Origin: an uncultured Bacteriovoracaceae bacterium
GTDB taxonomy: Bacteria > Bdellovibrionota > UBA1018
DNA: 64,000 nucleotides
Reading direction: 5' to 3'
Assembly (NCBI GenBank): GCA_964364175.1
Contig: CAYILR010000002.1
Location: 69,357-133,356 of the forward strand
The notes beneath the pieces are model-generated. The model saw nothing but the letters and a program-made list of their open reading frames with translations, had not been told where the DNA came from and searched no databases. Shown here piece by piece: positions 39,097-45,208 of the stretch. A program made the translations under genes and the position numbers. Every line of letters begins with the position of its first letter. Positions within the stretch are counted from its first letter, which is position 1.

Positions 39097-40065
39097 CTAC
39101 TGCATCTGATCCAGCCACAGAAGAGCGCCAGGAGTTTCCTTCCAAGCTCTCAGGGCCTCATCCACGTAAATCACCGCTTCTTCTCTGCTGCCCAGGGAGT
39201 ACGAATCCGGCCTCCACGGAGGAAGCTTGGACTTGCCTAGAAGATATTTTGGGACATGCACATTTCCTTGCACCGCTACTACAATTTGCTTCACTGCTTT
39301 TTTTGATTCCGAGCCCTGTTTTTTAAAAAGAAAAAGCGCCTTGTTAAACGCATGGAACGCACCAAAATCGTTTTTGTAGCGCCTGAGAATTTTCTCGACT
39401 TCATCCAGTTCGTTTTTGATGAGCAAGCAATTCACCAGCACATCTCGAAGTCCCTGATTGTCCTTGGGATTGAGTCGCAGGCAATCCTGATAATGAGTGA
39501 TGGCTTCCTTCTCACGACCCAGCTCCCACAAAAAATCAGCGAGGCTTGCTTTGGCCCTCATGTAGGGGCGGCTTTCGGTCATACCCCAAAAATGTCCCTC
39601 ATTTTCTTTGAAAAATTCCTCGCCCAGGTCTTTCTCTCCCGCCTCGACGGCGCGCTCAAAGCAAGAAAGCGCCTCCTCGGGTGTGCGCGAATCTTCACCG
39701 AGCATGATCCAAGCATCCGGTAGATGCGGATAAAGTTTCAAAGCCTGCTGGATGATTTTACGGCGTTGGCTCGACCGATCTTCCTCAAACGCATCATCCA
39801 TGAGGATCTGAGCTCGATCTCGATCCGACAGATCTTCGCGATCCTGGAACTCGGCGTTGATGTCGTCCATTTTCCGACCCATCAAGCTTTGCAAATACTG
39901 GTTGGCCTCCTCCATCGATAGATTTTTTGATTCAATCACCTTGCCGATATTTCCCAGCATCTGCTCCATTCCCCGACGAATTTTCGCTGGATTTACGGGA
40001 ACAGAGGTTTGAGCCATCAGCTCATTAACGGGGCAGGAATCATTGCGTCCCTGTTTCGTACTCAT
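39097..40065 (-). CDS. TPR-like helical repeat protein
   Basis: Repeated helix pairs ('AITHYQDCLRLNPKDNQGL', 'ALSCFERAVEAGEKDLG') and no catalytic motifs. Confidence 0.4.
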   Translation of the reverse strand: MSTKQGRNDSCPVNELMAQTSVPVNPAKIRRGMEQMLGNIGKVIESKNLSMEEANQYLQSLMGRKMDDINAEFQDREDLSDRDRAQILMDDAFEEDRSSQRRKIIQQALKLYPHLPDAWIMLGEDSRTPEEALSCFERAVEAGEKDLGEEFFKENEGHFWGMTESRPYMRAKASLADFLWELGREKEAITHYQDCLRLNPKDNQGLRDVLVNCLLIKNELDEVEKILRRYKNDFGAFHAFNKALFLFKKQGSESKKAVKQIVVAVQGNVHVPKYLLGKSKLPPWRPDSYSLGSREEAVIYVDEALRAWKETPGALLWLDQMQ

Positions 40066-40451
40066 GCATGAATCTCCTCGGCTTCATTTTCGGTTGGGTC
40101 AACGGTTTTTGTTCTGAGTAAATACTGTGCATGAAGTCGAGCCAGATTCAGGCCACGTGATGCGCATTGCTTCAAACTCAGAGTATTTTTGTAAGAAAGA
40201 TAGGTATCGGTAGTTTTCAATAAAGCTTCGGCCTTTGAAAAGGTAGTCTGAGTATCTTTTTCCATCTCAGCGACGAGGATGCGATTGCAATGCACTTCCT
40301 CTGCGGCTTGAGCTTGATCGAGATTGCTGATGATCGAGGACAAACTTGCCATGAGCTGCATGACGTCCTCATAGGTCAAGGCGGTGAGCCGATTCAAAAT
40401 CAGCTCTTGTTTCTCGATCACAGCGGCTCGGAGTTTCAACGGATCTGCCAT
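40062..40451 (-). CDS. hypothetical small protein (129 aa), translationally coupled to the TPR-like gene
   Basis: 4-bp overlap with the downstream gene on the same strand. Helical, no recognisable family. Confidence 0.35.
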   Translation of the reverse strand: MADPLKLRAAVIEKQELILNRLTALTYEDVMQLMASLSSIISNLDQAQAAEEVHCNRILVAEMEKDTQTTFSKAEALLKTTDTYLSYKNTLSLKQCASRGLNLARLHAQYLLRTKTVDPTENEAEEIHA

Positions 40452-40646: not shown

Positions 40647-42158
40647 TCAAAAATCTGTAACTTGTTTTCTAAGTTCACCCTTGAGTACTTTGCCCGAACC
40701 TGTTTTCGGCAAAGCCTCCAGGATCTGCACCTTTTTGGGCTGCAGATAGGGCGGCAAGGCCTTCTTCAAGTATTCCAAAAACTGCTCCATCACAAATCCT
40801 TCTTGCACACAAACGAACGCGGCCACGGCCTCACCCAAAAGCTCATCCGGCATCGCGACAACGGCACATTCCTTCACAGTCTCGAATTTGCGCATCGCCG
40901 TCTCAACATCCAACGCACTCGCCCGATTGCCTGCGCACTTGAGGATATCGCTTTTTCGGCCCTGAAGGAACAGATACCCATCTTCGTCGAGCCGGCCCAA
41001 ATCACCGGTGTGCAGCCATCCGTCCGAGAAAACCTGCGTGGTTCGGGCTTCGTCTCGGTAATAACCTTGAGAAATATTGGCTCCTTGTGCGGTGACTTCT
41101 CCATAACCGCTTGGAGCGTCATCATCGGGCAAAATGCGAATTTTTACACCCGGAATAGCCTTCCCCGCCGAACCCAGTTTGTTCTTCAATTCCTCGGGAG
41201 GCAAAATCGTCAGCCGAGCCGTCGCCTCCGTTTGGCCATACATCACATAAATCAGCGCTCCCGGAAAAACCGGTTCCAACTCCAGAATATCCGCCTGCGC
41301 GAGTTTCCCACCCGCCTGCAGCAAGTACCGCAAAGGAATCGGAGGTTTCTTCTTTAAACTCGAATTTTTGAGAAGAATCTGAAACGTCGAAGGCACACCC
41401 GCAAAACCCGTGCAAGGCACCTTGACCATTTCCTCGAGAACACGATCGGCGAACATAAATTGATTGTTGATCACGATGCACGCACCTGCTTTGAGGTGTG
41501 TGTGCAAAATCGAAGCACCGAAAGAATAGCAGAACGGCAGCACATTCATCACGACGTCGCTCGGGAGAATCGGCGCCGCCTGCAAAATTGCCTGCGTGTT
41601 GGCCAAGAGGTTTCCGTGACTGATCACCACACCCTTGGGATCGCCGGTCGATCCTGACGTAAACAGAATCAATGCTGGATCAGTGTCCAGTACGTCTGCA
41701 GCAGGCTCCGTTGATGTTTTGGAATTCGACTGAACAAAAAGTGCTTCCAACCTCTGAACCGGAACACCCAACGACTCCAAAGCCTGAGCATTCCGTCCCG
41801 CCACCAAATCCGAAACTAAAAATAGCTTCGGCTCCGCCAGCTTCACCACCGCCCGAATTTTTTCCGCCGAAGAATCCGCCGGCAAAGGCACGCAAACTAA
41901 CCCCGAACGCATGAGCGCCAGGTAGCTCACCACCCAGGCAAACGAATTTTCACCCTGCAGACAAACAAGACTACCCGGCTGAATTCCTTGCTTTTGAAAA
42001 TATGAAGAAAGACTCTCAACCCGCTGAATCAGCTCCGCACGCGAAATCACCTGATCTTTAATTCGAAGCGCGGGAGAGTTCCCCGGAATCGAATCTTCGC
42101 TGAGAATAGTTTCTGCGAAGTTCATTCGCTGAGTCCGTCCATTTTCCTTCCCTCTCAA
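40647..42158 (-). CDS. AMP-dependent synthetase/ligase, DltA-like stand-alone adenylation enzyme (acyl/aminoacyl-carrier-protein ligase)
   Basis: 'LILFTSGSTGDPKGVVISHGNLL' AMP-binding motif I, cf. DltA '[22 protein letters not shown]'. 503 aa with no condensation or thioesterase domains. Confidence 0.8.
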   Translation of the reverse strand: MRGKENGRTQRMNFAETILSEDSIPGNSPALRIKDQVISRAELIQRVESLSSYFQKQGIQPGSLVCLQGENSFAWVVSYLALMRSGLVCVPLPADSSAEKIRAVVKLAEPKLFLVSDLVAGRNAQALESLGVPVQRLEALFVQSNSKTSTEPAADVLDTDPALILFTSGSTGDPKGVVISHGNLLANTQAILQAAPILPSDVVMNVLPFCYSFGASILHTHLKAGACIVINNQFMFADRVLEEMVKVPCTGFAGVPSTFQILLKNSSLKKKPPIPLRYLLQAGGKLAQADILELEPVFPGALIYVMYGQTEATARLTILPPEELKNKLGSAGKAIPGVKIRILPDDDAPSGYGEVTAQGANISQGYYRDEARTTQVFSDGWLHTGDLGRLDEDGYLFLQGRKSDILKCAGNRASALDVETAMRKFETVKECAVVAMPDELLGEAVAAFVCVQEGFVMEQFLEYLKKALPPYLQPKKVQILEALPKTGSGKVLKGELRKQVTDF

Positions 42159-42478
42159 CCCGCAGTTTTTAACTTCAAAACATCTTTTTTCTTGAAGCGA
42201 AAGTCTTTGCCATTGGGTTTGGTGAACTTGATTTTCTTTTCTTTCACTTTTCTGCGCATCGTGGATTCAGAGATCCCCAAAAGCTGACAGGCTTCCGCCA
42301 AGGTAATTGTGTCTCCACTCAAAAACAATTTAGAAGAATCGGTAATATCCAACCCGATGACATTGGATGATTTATCCAGGCGAACAATCATTCCGTCCTT
42401 AAAAAAACTGCGGGCCTCTATTTCATCCTTAAAATCGATCGAAATATAATCGACGTCGGGTCGGTGATAAACTTTCAC
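42155..42478 (-). CDS. DUF2283-like protein with a C-terminal HTH (putative antitoxin)
   Basis: N-terminal 'MKVYHRPDVDYISIDF' is typical of DUF2283. C-terminal 'TLAEACQLLGISESTMRRKVKEKKI' is HTH. 4-bp overlaps on both sides. Confidence 0.5.
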   Translation of the reverse strand: MKVYHRPDVDYISIDFKDEIEARSFFKDGMIVRLDKSSNVIGLDITDSSKLFLSGDTITLAEACQLLGISESTMRRKVKEKKIKFTKPNGKDFRFKKKDVLKLKTAG

Positions 42479-42729
42479 GGGGCACCTCCTTCGTGAGTTG
42501 AGAATCTGTGCATCACAGTCAATATTTCATAAACCTGATCCAATGCTCGGACTGCAACGACAGCGATTTGATTGTCGGTACGACTGGAAATTAACTTATA
42601 ATAAATCACTTTGTCTTGAGACTGCTGGATGGTTCCACCAGGACTATTCATAACTTCCTCGACATCTTGAGTAGATATTTGCCTTGCCTGCATTCGTTCA
42701 ACAGCATGTGAAGAGTAGACGAGACGCAC
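42475..42729 (-). CDS. DUF4258-like small protein (putative toxin partner of DUF2283)
   Basis: 84 aa starting 'MRLVYSSHAVERMQARQIS', typical of DUF4258, immediately upstream of the DUF2283 gene. Confidence 0.5.
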   Translation of the reverse strand: MRLVYSSHAVERMQARQISTQDVEEVMNSPGGTIQQSQDKVIYYKLISSRTDNQIAVVAVRALDQVYEILTVMHRFSTHEGGAP

Positions 42730-42785
42730 TTTGTTAGTGTTCGATTTTTTTCACAACTTGTCAATAACTATTTTTAAATAGTCAT

Positions 42786-43112
42786 TCAATTACCTAGGCG
42801 CTCATCCGACGTCCCCGTCAACGCCTCGGACAGCGAATGTCCAAAGTGATTGCTCAGTTTTTTCAGATGAATCACGGTGTCGGTGGGATATGCCCCGTGC
42901 ATCCATCCATGGAGAACTGAGGGTGAGCAACCAGCGATCTTGCAAGCTTCGCGGATCGTTAGGCTCTTTTCACTCAAAAGCTTCTGGAGAAAAATACTCA
43001 GCGGCGTTCGGAATTCAAAGCGATGCACCCTGGGTTCTGCGACCCTCCAAGGAGTTATAAAACTTAAAAGCATTTCGTCTTTGGTTAGAATCCTGAGTTG
43101 TGGAGTTTTCAT
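42786..43112 (-). CDS. small HTH DNA-binding protein
   Basis: 'LTIREACKIAGCSPSVLHGWMHG' is HTH-like. Lies in the low-GC segment. Confidence 0.4.
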   Translation of the reverse strand: MKTPQLRILTKDEMLLSFITPWRVAEPRVHRFEFRTPLSIFLQKLLSEKSLTIREACKIAGCSPSVLHGWMHGAYPTDTVIHLKKLSNHFGHSLSEALTGTSDERLGN

Positions 43113-43154
43113 TTACGTTACCGAACTTGCTTCTCTCCCAAAATCTCCGCTAAC

Positions 43155-43805
43155 TCAACTGATGTTCACATTTCCGAACAACTCATGGGAAATAATGATC
43201 GGAGAATTTGTGGGTCGATATTCCTCCGTACAACTTGACGCATTCACATATTGAGTTTTGCCCAAGGTCACCTGACCATATCCATGATGGAGATGCCCGA
43301 AAACATGGATGTGAGGTTGAATTTTTTGAACTACTTTAAGCAATTCCTCGCACCCACAATGTTCACTAGTAATGACAAAATCTAAAATTCCATGCGGCGG
43401 ACCATGAGTCACGAGAATATCTACCTGTTCGGGAATTTGCCCCCATTTTTTTGCGATCGCCTTGCCTCGATCGACATTAAAAGCCCAATTACAAAATGTG
43501 GGCTGCCAAGGTGAGCCAAAGATCCGAGTAGATTGAATCGTGATTTCCTGATCGATCAAAACTGTCACATCAAGTCCCATGATTTCGCGTGCAAGCGTTT
43601 CCTGCTCCTCAAAAAGCCAGTCGTGGTTACCGGGAACAAAAACCTTGTGTGGATGTGGCAAGGCGCGAAACTCTTTAGAAAATGTAATGACTTCCTGGAG
43701 AGTACCCATACTTGTTGCATCACCAGCATGAATCAAGAGATCCCCCTCTGGGATTTTCATTTTGGAGAGCTGGTTGTGAGTATCTGAAATACAAATGATT
43801 TTCAT
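43155..43805 (-). CDS. calcineurin-like metallophosphoesterase
   Basis: 'ISDTHN', 'GDLLIHAGD', 'VPGNHD' and 'THGPPHG' motifs. Coding sequence is AT-rich relative to the locus. Confidence 0.8.
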   Translation of the reverse strand: MKIICISDTHNQLSKMKIPEGDLLIHAGDATSMGTLQEVITFSKEFRALPHPHKVFVPGNHDWLFEEQETLAREIMGLDVTVLIDQEITIQSTRIFGSPWQPTFCNWAFNVDRGKAIAKKWGQIPEQVDILVTHGPPHGILDFVITSEHCGCEELLKVVQKIQPHIHVFGHLHHGYGQVTLGKTQYVNASSCTEEYRPTNSPIIISHELFGNVNIS

Positions 43806-44779
43806 AAAATCCTTCCGGATGATTTTCTGAACAAAATTTTCTTGGAATCAAAATCATAGTCAACCAGCTTCCCCTGAAATAAATATTTCGTTTTTTGTAA
43901 ATCCTCACGATAATTTCCAGTCAGCTCCCAACTAATCAGTCGAAGGCATTTGCTTTCATCCACGAATTTAAACTCATTCATCGAACTATGCTCAAAATAA
44001 TAGGTGGGAATTTCAAAATCATAATCATGCTCAAGCATTGCGAAAGTATGTGAGAGCAACCCATTTTCATAACGTTGATGAGAGCCTCCGCTTCCTCCTT
44101 TGGTCCATGCGATGTGATCTCCTTGATCAATAAAGAAATACTGCTGCCAGGGGTTTCGATGATCCCAATAGTTAAAGGGTTTAGGTGTATTGGGATAAAC
44201 CCTCTCGTAGGTTGCACTCACTCTCGGAAGATGGATTTCTTTGAGCCGTTTTTCCCAACGTTTTTTTGCTGCGCTCTTTGTGAGTCGAATCTCGTCTCCA
44301 GTCTCTTCATCGTAGTCGTACTTACACATTTCTTTAAATAGAGCCACCACATCCGGGTAATATTCGAATGCTTGAGATTGAAAAATAGCATCCGTGATTT
44401 GATGCTCAATTTCTCTCTTAGGATCAGTTTTCCAATTATACGTTTTTCTGGGATATTCACGCTCTTTGAATATTTTCTCTAATTCATCTGAACTATAATA
44501 ACTGCGCTCTACCCGGTCCCGGGCTTCTTCTTCAACTTCGCTGACCAGTAAATGATTTGTGATTTGCAAGTGAGAGGGGTCTTCGTATAATTTTTCATCC
44601 AGATGCTCCTCGGTCATCATCACAAGACAACATTTGTATTGATGCTCGGAGAAAATTTTAGCTAGAGCAGAGTGAGTATCGTCCTTAACCCCTTTTGAAT
44701 ATTTGGAGAAGTAGTCGAGTGATTTATTGAATACTAGGTTTTTTATGATGCTAGTCTTGGTTTTTTCAAAAGTGAACAT
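43802..44779 (-). CDS. hypothetical protein (325 aa), translationally coupled to the metallophosphoesterase
   Basis: 4-bp overlap with the downstream metallophosphoesterase gene. AT-rich. Contains 'TKGGSGGSHQ' glycine-rich loop. No family recognised. Confidence 0.4.
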   Translation of the reverse strand: MFTFEKTKTSIIKNLVFNKSLDYFSKYSKGVKDDTHSALAKIFSEHQYKCCLVMMTEEHLDEKLYEDPSHLQITNHLLVSEVEEEARDRVERSYYSSDELEKIFKEREYPRKTYNWKTDPKREIEHQITDAIFQSQAFEYYPDVVALFKEMCKYDYDEETGDEIRLTKSAAKKRWEKRLKEIHLPRVSATYERVYPNTPKPFNYWDHRNPWQQYFFIDQGDHIAWTKGGSGGSHQRYENGLLSHTFAMLEHDYDFEIPTYYFEHSSMNEFKFVDESKCLRLISWELTGNYREDLQKTKYLFQGKLVDYDFDSKKILFRKSSGRIL

Positions 44780-44971
44780 TTGAGCAGTATAGAGGGTTTT
44801 TTCTGTGTTGGAATGGATTTTCAGAAGTCTGAACAGACAGCAAAACTGGCCGCAGAAATCAAAATCAAAGAAATTCTCTTTTTGGATTATTTACGTGAGA
44901 TTGATCGACGCGAGTTGTACAAAATTCGCACTTCAGGACGTAGCTATATTCTCAATCGGTCCAGAAGCAAC

Positions 44972-45208
44972 TCAGCTCAACCCACGCTCCGACAAAACAC
45001 CGTAGATGGCTTTAACGCTGTCCATTTTCATGATCTCTTCGACTTGAAACTCGACGGTGAACTCGGTCTGAAGAGCGTTCACCAAATTCAGATGCCCGAG
45101 TGAATCCCAGCCCGCGACATGTTCGGGCAAAACGTCATCGTTGTACTCAAACTTGGCTTCGGGGAACGCGGTCTCGAATGCTTTTTTTACTTTCTCGTTC
45201 ATTGCCAT
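44972..45208 (-). CDS. acyl carrier protein (phosphopantetheine-binding, DltC-like)
   Basis: 78 aa with 'AGWDSLGHLNLVNALQTEF', an ACP serine attachment motif. Confidence 0.75.
   Translation of the reverse strand: MAMNEKVKKAFETAFPEAKFEYNDDVLPEHVAGWDSLGHLNLVNALQTEFTVEFQVEEIMKMDSVKAIYGVLSERGLS

Follow-up and report, generated by a model that had tools for sequence, protein, structure and literature searches.

Published metallophosphoesterases (MPEs) act on DNA as well as on nucleotides. MPPED2-type enzymes hydrolyse cyclic nucleotides (PMC10547211), and the class III phosphodiesterase PdeM is a nuclease of double-stranded DNA with no activity on cyclic nucleoside monophosphates (PMC4320098). 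The MPE Gp48 of mycobacteriophage A10ZJ24 is reported to damage host DNA and to counter defence (PMC12287305), while the phosphatase module of the RNA-repair enzyme Pnkp is a calcineurin-type MPE that heals 2',3'-cyclic ends (PMC3675462). The PDC candidates, PDC-S10 among them, came from a "guilt-by-embedding" screen for genes nested in BREX, DISARM, type I restriction-modification and Hma systems, which yielded 145 candidates (10.1101/2024.01.29.577857); the only other mention of PDC-S10 that we found in the literature concerns matches in jumbophages. Here we analyse an MPE gene of the PDC-S10 type and the gene that overlaps it, which encodes a 325-aa protein that we call X, in 64 kb of DNA from an uncultured Bacteriovoracaceae bacterium (contig CAYILR010000002.1; this whole stretch is the window below). 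Coordinates are positions in this stretch, and L followed by a number denotes a comparison locus or contig.

We propose, tentatively and at somewhat less than an even chance, that X and the MPE form a facultative functional pair whose targets are the phosphates of nucleotides or nucleic acids and whose setting is phage–host conflict. A cassette for such conflict is probable because relatives of X lie in phage-like DNA and in CRISPR-Cas operons. A conflict role is also made plausible by the combination of an insertion demonstrated by synteny, the PDC-S10 match, the cas and phage-like contexts of X, and the recurrent adjacency of X and MPE genes.

Linkage of X to metallophosphoesterase genes

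With 47.3 bits (cut-off 21.5, E 4.3e-12), the MPE in the window is a clear match to Pfam PF00149 (Metallophos), in agreement with the calcineurin-like identity given in an earlier note that had been made from the letters of the window. All of its metal-ligand motifs are present: DTH at residues 8-10, GD at 27-28, GNHD at 59-62, THGPP at 133-137 and GHLHH at 170-174. Two of the three motifs quoted in that note, DTHN and GNHD, can be read in the protein, whereas the third, "GDxxD", is spelled GDATS. The only solved relatives of the MPE are structures of rat MPPED2 (PDB 3rl4 and 3rl3), with 3rl4_A aligned over residues 2-68 and 82-205 at E 1.2e-55. The histidine of GHLHH is present where wild-type MPPED2 has a glycine, and the G252H mutant of MPPED2 has a histidine at this position. 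Judged by these alignments, the window enzyme is an MPPED1/2-type metallophosphodiesterase. The PDC-S10 profile of PADLOC is matched at E 2.3e-87 over profile positions 10-216 of 223. Homologues of the MPE number more than 7,900, come from many phyla, and are mostly 50-55% identical to it and 205-220 aa long.

X is transcribed first, and the last bases of its gene are shared with the first bases of the MPE gene in the sequence ATGA (43802-43805), as the earlier note had read; translational coupling of X and MPE is likely. All three minus-strand open reading frames (ORFs) that it had listed, for a helix-turn-helix (HTH)-like protein, the MPE and X, are present where it had placed them. Contigs L002-L004, from two sequencing runs and an assembly named "Hain_H52", are 100% identical to the window and have the same layout.

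Loci encoding X relatives were collected from a pattern scan of JGI metagenomes (65 loci), from IMG/VR (2 loci) and, for the rest, from exact look-ups, and were dereplicated at 90% identity into about 60 groups. ORFs were called in each locus and searched with hidden Markov models (HMMs) of the X family and of the MPE, and the neighbouring proteins were clustered and the clusters annotated. An MPE gene is adjacent to X, or within about 2 kb of it, in five distinct locus groups, which include both gene orders and, in three cases, a 4-bp overlap. X precedes the MPE in the window, while the order is reversed in L090/L091, where a 208-aa MPPED-like MPE that is 44% identical to that of the window again overlaps X by 4 bp. 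In L135, an MPE of the Metallophos_2 type precedes a minimal form of X with the same overlap. A truncated X in L155 is followed by a third type of MPE, and in L085/L086 an MPPED-like MPE (31% identical, E 8e-34) is encoded five genes downstream of X, with a divergent 324-aa Metallophos protein also encoded nearby. All matches to the MPE HMM in the X loci fall within five genes of X, and the same HMM had no match in 1.08 Mb of unrelated control loci. Because the MPE subfamilies differ between loci, both gene orders occur and the start/stop overlaps repeat, these data suggest a functional link between X and MPEs.

The X family, its predicted fold and its genomic settings

An exhaustive HMMER search of 1.84 billion representative proteins recovered 141 members of the X family at E<=1e-3; 53 reach E<=1e-30, and full-length proteins of 290-340 aa predominate. 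A word-index protein search had returned a single homologue (P0002, 57% identical), to which a profile rerun added one. X has no match in Pfam, NCBIfam, PHROGs or PADLOC, no Pfam match is shared among 48 family members, and the X proteins of clade B, described below, match no Cas model of PADLOC and no NCBIfam model. By tblastn, X was absent from 50,697 deposited phage genomes (three clade A proteins as queries) and from 72,556 plasmids (one clade A and one clade B protein). A scan of GTDB genomes with two peptide patterns and single-protein scans of viral contigs likewise found none. The X family is known only from metagenomes and has no name in any library searched; its absence from the deposited phage genomes and plasmids that were searched accounts for its having escaped annotation.

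An alignment of 48 X sequences contains the motifs DP; SxxEEEAR; PR…R.Y.MP.PF..WD.RN.WQQ.FF; GGSGSSGxRE..GR.AH.FA; PT; N; and LxGNY. Of 137 X sequences, at least 91% have R193, Q213, G228, S233, R236, T259, N268 and N289; D206 and H244 are conserved in most sequences, both in the alignment of 48 and in the CRISPR-linked clade B. The conserved residues all lie in the C-terminal half of the protein. The glycine-rich loop reads GGSG[GS]S and continues with xR; it contains neither Lys-Ser/Thr nor a Walker-A GK[ST] motif, and the family as a whole has no invariant lysine and one conserved acidic residue, D206.

An AlphaFold2 model of X built from the family alignment had a predicted local distance difference test score (pLDDT) of 94.8 and a predicted template modelling score (pTM) of 0.84. 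Conservation is strongest across a strand (222-229), the glycine-rich loop and a helix (233-253), and from this part of the model we infer a predicted anion- or phosphate-binding element. The minimal X of L135 (842-1393) is a natural 183-aa form; because it does without residues corresponding to about 80-185 of the window protein, the helical insert of X appears to be dispensable. A gene for a Lys/Ala-rich histone-like protein and a thymidylate kinase gene follow the MPE and minimal X genes in L135. Foldseek searches of the X model against the PDB and BFVD gave nothing at E<=1e-3, with template modelling (TM) scores below 0.15, and a profile search of the PDB with X returned noise only, at E above 1. 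Faint likenesses to Ntn hydrolases, in Pfam AAT (E 0.08) and in proteasome subunits (TM about 0.1), were also taken as noise. The earlier note had described X as having no recognisable family and a TKGGSGGSH loop; both descriptions stand, and the profile and Foldseek searches gave neither a family nor a housekeeping match. X represents an undescribed family whose members are about 300 aa long; its predicted fold has no match among the solved structures of the PDB and is apparently new.

A neighbour-joining tree of X splits the family into a deep-branching clade A, which contains the X of the window, and a tight, monophyletic clade B. In about 15 dereplicated locus groups, clade B genes lie inside type I-B cas operons and in the same orientation, in the order cas1-cas2-X-cas6b or cas1-cas2-X-cas8b-cas7-cas5-cas3-cas6b. 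In these operons Cas1, Cas2, Cas6b, Cas8b (TM1802) and Cas7 were recognised by Pfam, Cas3 by NCBIfam and Cas5b by PADLOC. The X and cas6b genes overlap by 4 bp in L126 and L133. A whole cas operon in L127 (6161-15218) and the X-bearing type I-B locus in L133 (23-8198), which read cas1-cas2-X-(cas6b)-cas8b-cas7-cas5-cas3, have no cas4-like ORF in view. The L127 operon has unrelated genes upstream and a HEPN-like/MNT-like pair downstream. Three X loci (L142:6809-7261; L147:3225-3650; L152:1013-1399) carry a conserved 128-150-aa ORF between cas1 and cas2, whose product resembles, by eye, four-helix-bundle/23S-rRNA-intervening-sequence proteins.

Clade A genes are found mostly in phage-like DNA, among runs of small co-directional ORFs, with HNH/homing endonucleases, a tail-fibre protein and an NrdD-like reductase encoded nearby. 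In two phage-like contigs, genes for NAMPT and an NMNAT-Nudix fusion lie within about 1-5 kb of X (L089:8172-10861; L103:12901-15349); NAD-salvage pairs like this one are linked to the evasion of defences that deplete NAD. A thymidylate kinase gene is found near X in L135 and an aspartate carbamoyltransferase gene in L101. A gene for a DinG/XPD-like helicase overlaps the X stop codon in L105, L116 and L117. In L088 (7117-9715), a hydrophobic 261-aa ORF precedes X with a gap of 2 bp and an ABC ATPase gene overlaps the X stop codon. An OmpA-domain protein is encoded upstream in L088, and X there is embedded in an unrelated operon.

The operon insertion and its other genes

The X and MPE genes lie in an operon of genes for a short-chain dehydrogenase/reductase (SDR), an acyl carrier protein (ACP) and an acyl-AMP ligase. 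Eighty loci with relatives of the ligase were fetched and relatives of the operon genes of the window located in each; the best ligase relatives share only about 41% identity and are spread over many phyla. In L008 (Labilithrix), L009 and L014 (Acidobacteriota), the SDR, ACP and ligase genes are contiguous and are followed by relatives of the 384-aa and 409-aa ORFs of the window. The same operon genes are present in L015, with ACP directly upstream of the ligase, but the SDR match lies downstream. In these four, 3-90 bp lie between the end of ACP and the ligase gene, and the next operon gene begins 23-107 bp after the ligase; a spacing of 3-134 bp between ACP and ligase was recorded for syntenic loci. 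The window has 2.8 kb (42155-44971) between the ACP and ligase genes, with SDR and ACP upstream of the five-ORF block and the ligase downstream (Table 1). On this comparison of gene order, the interval is shown to be a horizontally acquired five-gene insertion in a conserved operon, which bears out the insertion proposed in the earlier note, and the DUF4258/DUF2283 pair and the ACP gene flank the X-MPE-HTH block as it had described.

That the block is foreign to its surroundings is evident from synteny and not from composition. The GC content is 0.452 for the window, 0.390 for X (z -1.8), 0.435 for the MPE (z -0.6) and 0.489, above the mean, for the HTH ORF. The block as a whole (42786-44779) has a GC content of 0.422, which about 14% of windows of the same size equal or fall below, and its tetranucleotide distance is unremarkable at the 66th percentile. 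Of the AT-rich module originally described, X is clearly AT-rich, whereas the HTH ORF lies above the mean and the k-mer distance does not stand out. The local dip in GC at the block looks sharp by contrast with the operon genes on either side, which have the highest GC content of the window (0.49-0.54). With only X clearly AT-rich and about 14% of equal windows as low or lower, composition was set aside as a weak sign of foreign origin.

No convincing direct or inverted repeats flank the block at its junctions, no target-site duplications were found there, and the window has no tRNA or Rfam elements. Promoter- and terminator-like sites at the block are not more numerous than in shuffled sequence, so expression of the block by read-through from the host operon is plausible. 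A second small insert (39097-40451), with a 129-aa ORF and a gene for a 322-aa TPR/ST7-like protein, lies between the ligase gene and the next conserved gene; both of its genes are missing from L008, L009, L014 and L015.

Transcription of the insertion runs through X (44779→43802), the MPE (43805→43155), the 108-aa ORF (43112→42786), the DUF4258 gene (42729→42475) and the DUF2283-like/HTH_17 gene (42478→42155). The small HTH protein thus precedes the pair only in plus-strand coordinates and is transcribed after the MPE, contrary to the order first given. Its HTH label is weak: HTH_26 scores 18.7 bits against a Pfam cut-off of 22 (E 0.002), and phrog_8, a transcriptional regulator family, is matched at E 2.9e-5. 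The DUF4258 protein scores 37.7 bits against a Pfam cut-off of 25, and its gene overlaps that of the adjacent 107-aa protein by 4 bp. The 107-aa protein (42155-42478) matches HTH_17 (E 3.6e-11) and the TIGR01764 excisionase domain (E 2.8e-13), and reaches 17.4 bits for DUF2283, below the cut-off of 23. Its HTH_17 domain also matches the MADS defence protein MAD1 (PADLOC E 1e-8; NCBIfam E 6e-4, below cut-off). A perfect 7-bp inverted repeat, ACTATTT-AA-AAATAGT (42766-42781), sits in the 56-bp gap between the stop of the HTH ORF and the start of the DUF4258 gene, immediately upstream of a TTGACA hexamer, and may be an operator/promoter for the toxin-antitoxin (TA)-like pair.

The HTH ORF and the DUF4258 and DUF2283 genes have no relatives in other X loci, and they were ruled out as partners of X. 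By this comparison of loci, the HTH ORF and the DUF4258/DUF2283-HTH pair are shown to be separate cargo of the insertion, and the idea of a three-gene unit falls away.

Table 1. Features of the insertion and its upstream flank in the window
Feature	Positions	Strand	Basis
X, 325 aa, undescribed family, Gly-rich TKGGSGGSH at residues 226-234	43802..44779	-	ORF call
MPE, 216 aa, predicted MPPED1/2-type (239FB-like) metallophosphodiesterase; PADLOC PDC-S10 match	43155..43805	-	Pfam, PADLOC, PDB
ATGA, 4-bp overlap of X stop and MPE start	43802..43805	-	read from sequence
108-aa ORF, weak Xre/Cro-type HTH	42786..43112	-	HTH_26, phrog_8
DUF4258 protein, toxin-like, 84 aa	42475..42729	-	Pfam DUF4258
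DUF2283-like N-terminus with excisionase-type HTH_17, antitoxin-like, 107 aa	42155..42478	-	Pfam, NCBIfam
192-bp spacer from ACP stop to X start, upstream junction of insertion	44780..44971	.	sequence
ACP gene, 78 aa, in the minus-strand operon, upstream of X	44972-45208	-	
Five-gene 2.8-kb insertion, co-directional with the interrupted SDR-ACP-acyl-AMP-ligase operon	42155..44971	-	

Possible roles and known counterparts

We hypothesize that X would bind or act on a phosphate-bearing nucleotide or nucleic-acid end, with a likely site formed by residues 222-253 (G228, S233, R236 and H244) together with R193, D206, Q213, T259, N268 and N289. In the same pathway, the MPE would hydrolyse a substrate or product that carries a phosphodiester or cyclic phosphate. 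The pair may belong to a pool of phage–host conflict genes found in phage modules for nucleotide and DNA metabolism and in host immune operons, and in this chromosome, where transcription reading through from the host operon would express it, the more likely role is that of a defence-type accessory of the host. Processing of DNA ends is pointed to by the cas1-cas2 and helicase neighbours of X, and nucleotide substrates by the nucleotide-metabolism genes of phage-like neighbours and by the cyclic-nucleotide activity of MPPED-type enzymes. These contexts single out neither one substrate nor defence over counter-defence, and the published MPEs cover both DNA and nucleotides.

Several observations weigh against a functional pair in phage–host conflict. 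About 55 of the roughly 60 distinct X loci show no MPE, among them the nearest relatives of the window X (L001, 57% identical, L087 and L158-L161), although on short contigs; four extra look-ups of the closest relatives gave contigs of 1.6-3.5 kb, again with no MPE. Nearly all of the MPE homologues, thousands of proteins, occur without X. The X-MPE pair is facultative, not obligate. PDC-S10 has candidate status only, and the 64-kb window contains no integrase or recognised defence system that we found and no relatives of Cas1, Cas2, Cas6b, Cas7 or Cas8b or tandem-repeat arrays; its own X copy is not in a cas operon. The CRISPR-linked clade, being monophyletic and tight, may represent a single acquisition and not independent evidence, and no CRISPR array was seen in the retrieved clade B segments. 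The putative phosphate-binding role of X rests solely on the order of secondary-structure elements and on conservation. X also occurs beside glycan genes: rmlC overlaps its stop codon in L100 (460-1984), and a Glyco_trans_1_2 gene is convergent with it in L001 (191-1949). Both are clade A loci, as is the window, whose X likewise lies in a glycan/lipid cluster, and the association could be coincidence or a preference for insertion sites.

The earlier note had suggested a phage-defence cassette. A conflict role is plausible, but proof of defence does not follow from a candidate family that adjoins no known defence system: the PADLOC run that the note had recommended matched the MPE to PDC-S10 and detected no complete or known system among the five insertion genes, with only the TA-like pair adjacent.

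The genes might instead share no function, X, the MPE, the HTH ORF and the TA-like pair being independent accessories gathered at a permissive site with no cooperation between X and the MPE. The scarcity of each gene at loci of the other would fit this, as would the HTH and TA genes, which are clearly unrelated cargo, and MPEs of genomes in which no X is known are nearer to the window MPE (50-60% identical) than is that of L090 (44%). We nevertheless consider chance juxtaposition unlikely, given that 4-bp start/stop overlaps occur in the window, L090 and L135, that X adjoins MPEs of three or more subfamilies and in both gene orders, and that the 1.08-Mb control contained no MPPED-like gene. 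X could also be a selfish gene that invades operons, like a free-standing homing endonuclease, in which case its neighbours would mark insertion sites and not function. It is wedged co-directionally into unrelated operons (between ACP and AMP-ligase in the window, in L088, between cas2 and cas6b in clade B, and by rmlC in L100), and it is sporadically distributed and found in HNH-rich phage-like regions. This is a still weaker prospect, since no known nuclease motif or fold was detected in X, no target-site duplications or flanking repeats were found, and its position within clade B cas operons is stable; the core of Arg, Ser, Thr, Asn and Gln residues, with D206 as the only acidic one, is atypical for metal-dependent nucleases. 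About as unlikely as chance juxtaposition is a phage-derived counter-defence or nucleotide-salvage pair, possibly degrading host nucleic acids or immune nucleotide signals, of which the window copy would be a remnant of mobile DNA. Clade A genes lie mostly in phage-like contigs with genes for NAD salvage, ribonucleotide reductase, Tmk and aspartate carbamoyltransferase, PDC-S10 matches are reported in jumbophages, the phage MPE Gp48 is a counter-defence factor, and MPPED2-type enzymes hydrolyse cyclic nucleotides. The window block, however, has no prophage genes, integrase or att repeats near it and sits within a chromosomal operon beside TA-like genes, and clade B X is host-encoded in cas operons.

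Two further explanations fare worse. X and the MPE could serve the surrounding glycan/lipid modification pathway, for example in nucleotide-sugar or phosphodiester processing, and the two genes run in the same direction as the operon, where no clear terminator was seen; in addition, the closest homologue of X, in L001, adjoins Glyco_trans_1_2, the X of L100 overlaps rmlC, and L105 has a nucleotide-sugar-epimerase-like gene. Such a role is improbable: neither gene is present in the syntenic operons of four genomes, X turns up in cas operons, beside helicases and in phage modules as well, and the MPE family is widespread and not tied to glycan genes. The analogy with RNA repair drawn in the earlier note, in which the MPE would heal 2',3'-cyclic-phosphate ends and X would be a kinase or ligase, as in Pnkp/Hen1 or T4 Pnk/Rnl, could draw on the calcineurin-type phosphatase module of Pnkp (PMC3675462) and on the glycine-rich loop that precedes a helix in X. 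It is nonetheless very improbable and was not borne out: X has neither a GK[ST] Walker A nor an invariant lysine for the KxDG ligase motif, it resembles no kinase, ligase, RtcB or Hen1 in Pfam, NCBIfam, PDB sequences or fold, no Hen1-like methyltransferase gene lies in the insertion or its immediate flanks, and the nearest solved relative of the MPE is MPPED2, not Pnkp.

Returning to the functional pair in phage–host conflict, a bolder version can be formulated, which we regard as unlikely. X would be a new family and fold shared by phages and host immunity, acting in type I-B systems that lack cas4 as a genuine Cas accessory, perhaps for adaptation or end-processing, that substitutes for Cas4. 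In other settings its partners would be a DinG-like helicase or phosphoesterases that can replace one another, and X-MPE in the window would be a stand-alone immune or counter-immune system of two genes, with a hitherto undescribed activity on the phosphates of nucleic acids or nucleotides. A role of X in CRISPR adaptation is purely what we infer by analogy with Cas4. Collectively, these findings give PDC-S10, a widespread defence-candidate family, a putatively translationally coupled partner in this genome. That partner belongs to a family that is unnamed in the libraries searched, whose predicted fold resembles no solved structure, and which, in a type I-B variant where no cas4 is visible, is embedded with the adaptation genes on one side and the effector genes on the other. 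If demonstrated, the function of X would bring a new fold, for catalysis or for binding, into the repertoire of phage–host conflict, and it might account for type I-B systems that manage without Cas4. The proposal is directly testable, given the small size of both genes and a defined set of candidate active-site residues.

Among described proteins, the MPE is closest to MPPED1/MPPED2 (239FB), with which it shares a near full-length alignment, the metal motifs and a catalytic histidine as in the G252H mutant. Unlike these, it is a stand-alone bacterial protein of 216 aa with no eukaryotic N-terminal extension, it is probably coupled in translation to an unrelated protein, and its activity and substrate are predicted ones. 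The match to the PDC-S10 HMM (Payne et al. 2024) is likewise near full length; however, PDC-S10 was defined as a single-gene candidate, whereas the copy in the window is coupled to X and lies inside a biosynthetic operon, not within a known defence system. Gp48 is comparable as an MPE deployed in phage–host conflict, there borne by a phage, but it works by itself and reportedly damages host DNA. The Pnkp-Hen1 and T4 Pnk-Rnl systems also combine a calcineurin-type phosphoesterase with a second enzyme in phage–host conflict, although X has no kinase or ligase motifs and no methyltransferase is present. The genes at 42155-42729 overlap by 4 bp and match the families of DUF4258/DUF2283 toxin-antitoxin-like pairs; they differ in that the DUF2283 match is below cut-off, is fused to an excisionase-type HTH, and is not linked to X elsewhere. 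For X itself, the nearest counterpart is Cas4, in place if not in kind. X adjoins cas1-cas2 in type I-B loci and occurs in mobile or phage genomes and as solo chromosomal copies, the same distribution that PMC5704561 describes for Cas4, and the X-bearing type I-B loci show no cas4. In contrast to Cas4, X has no PD-(D/E)xK or Fe-S cysteine signature and no sequence or fold similarity to any Cas family.

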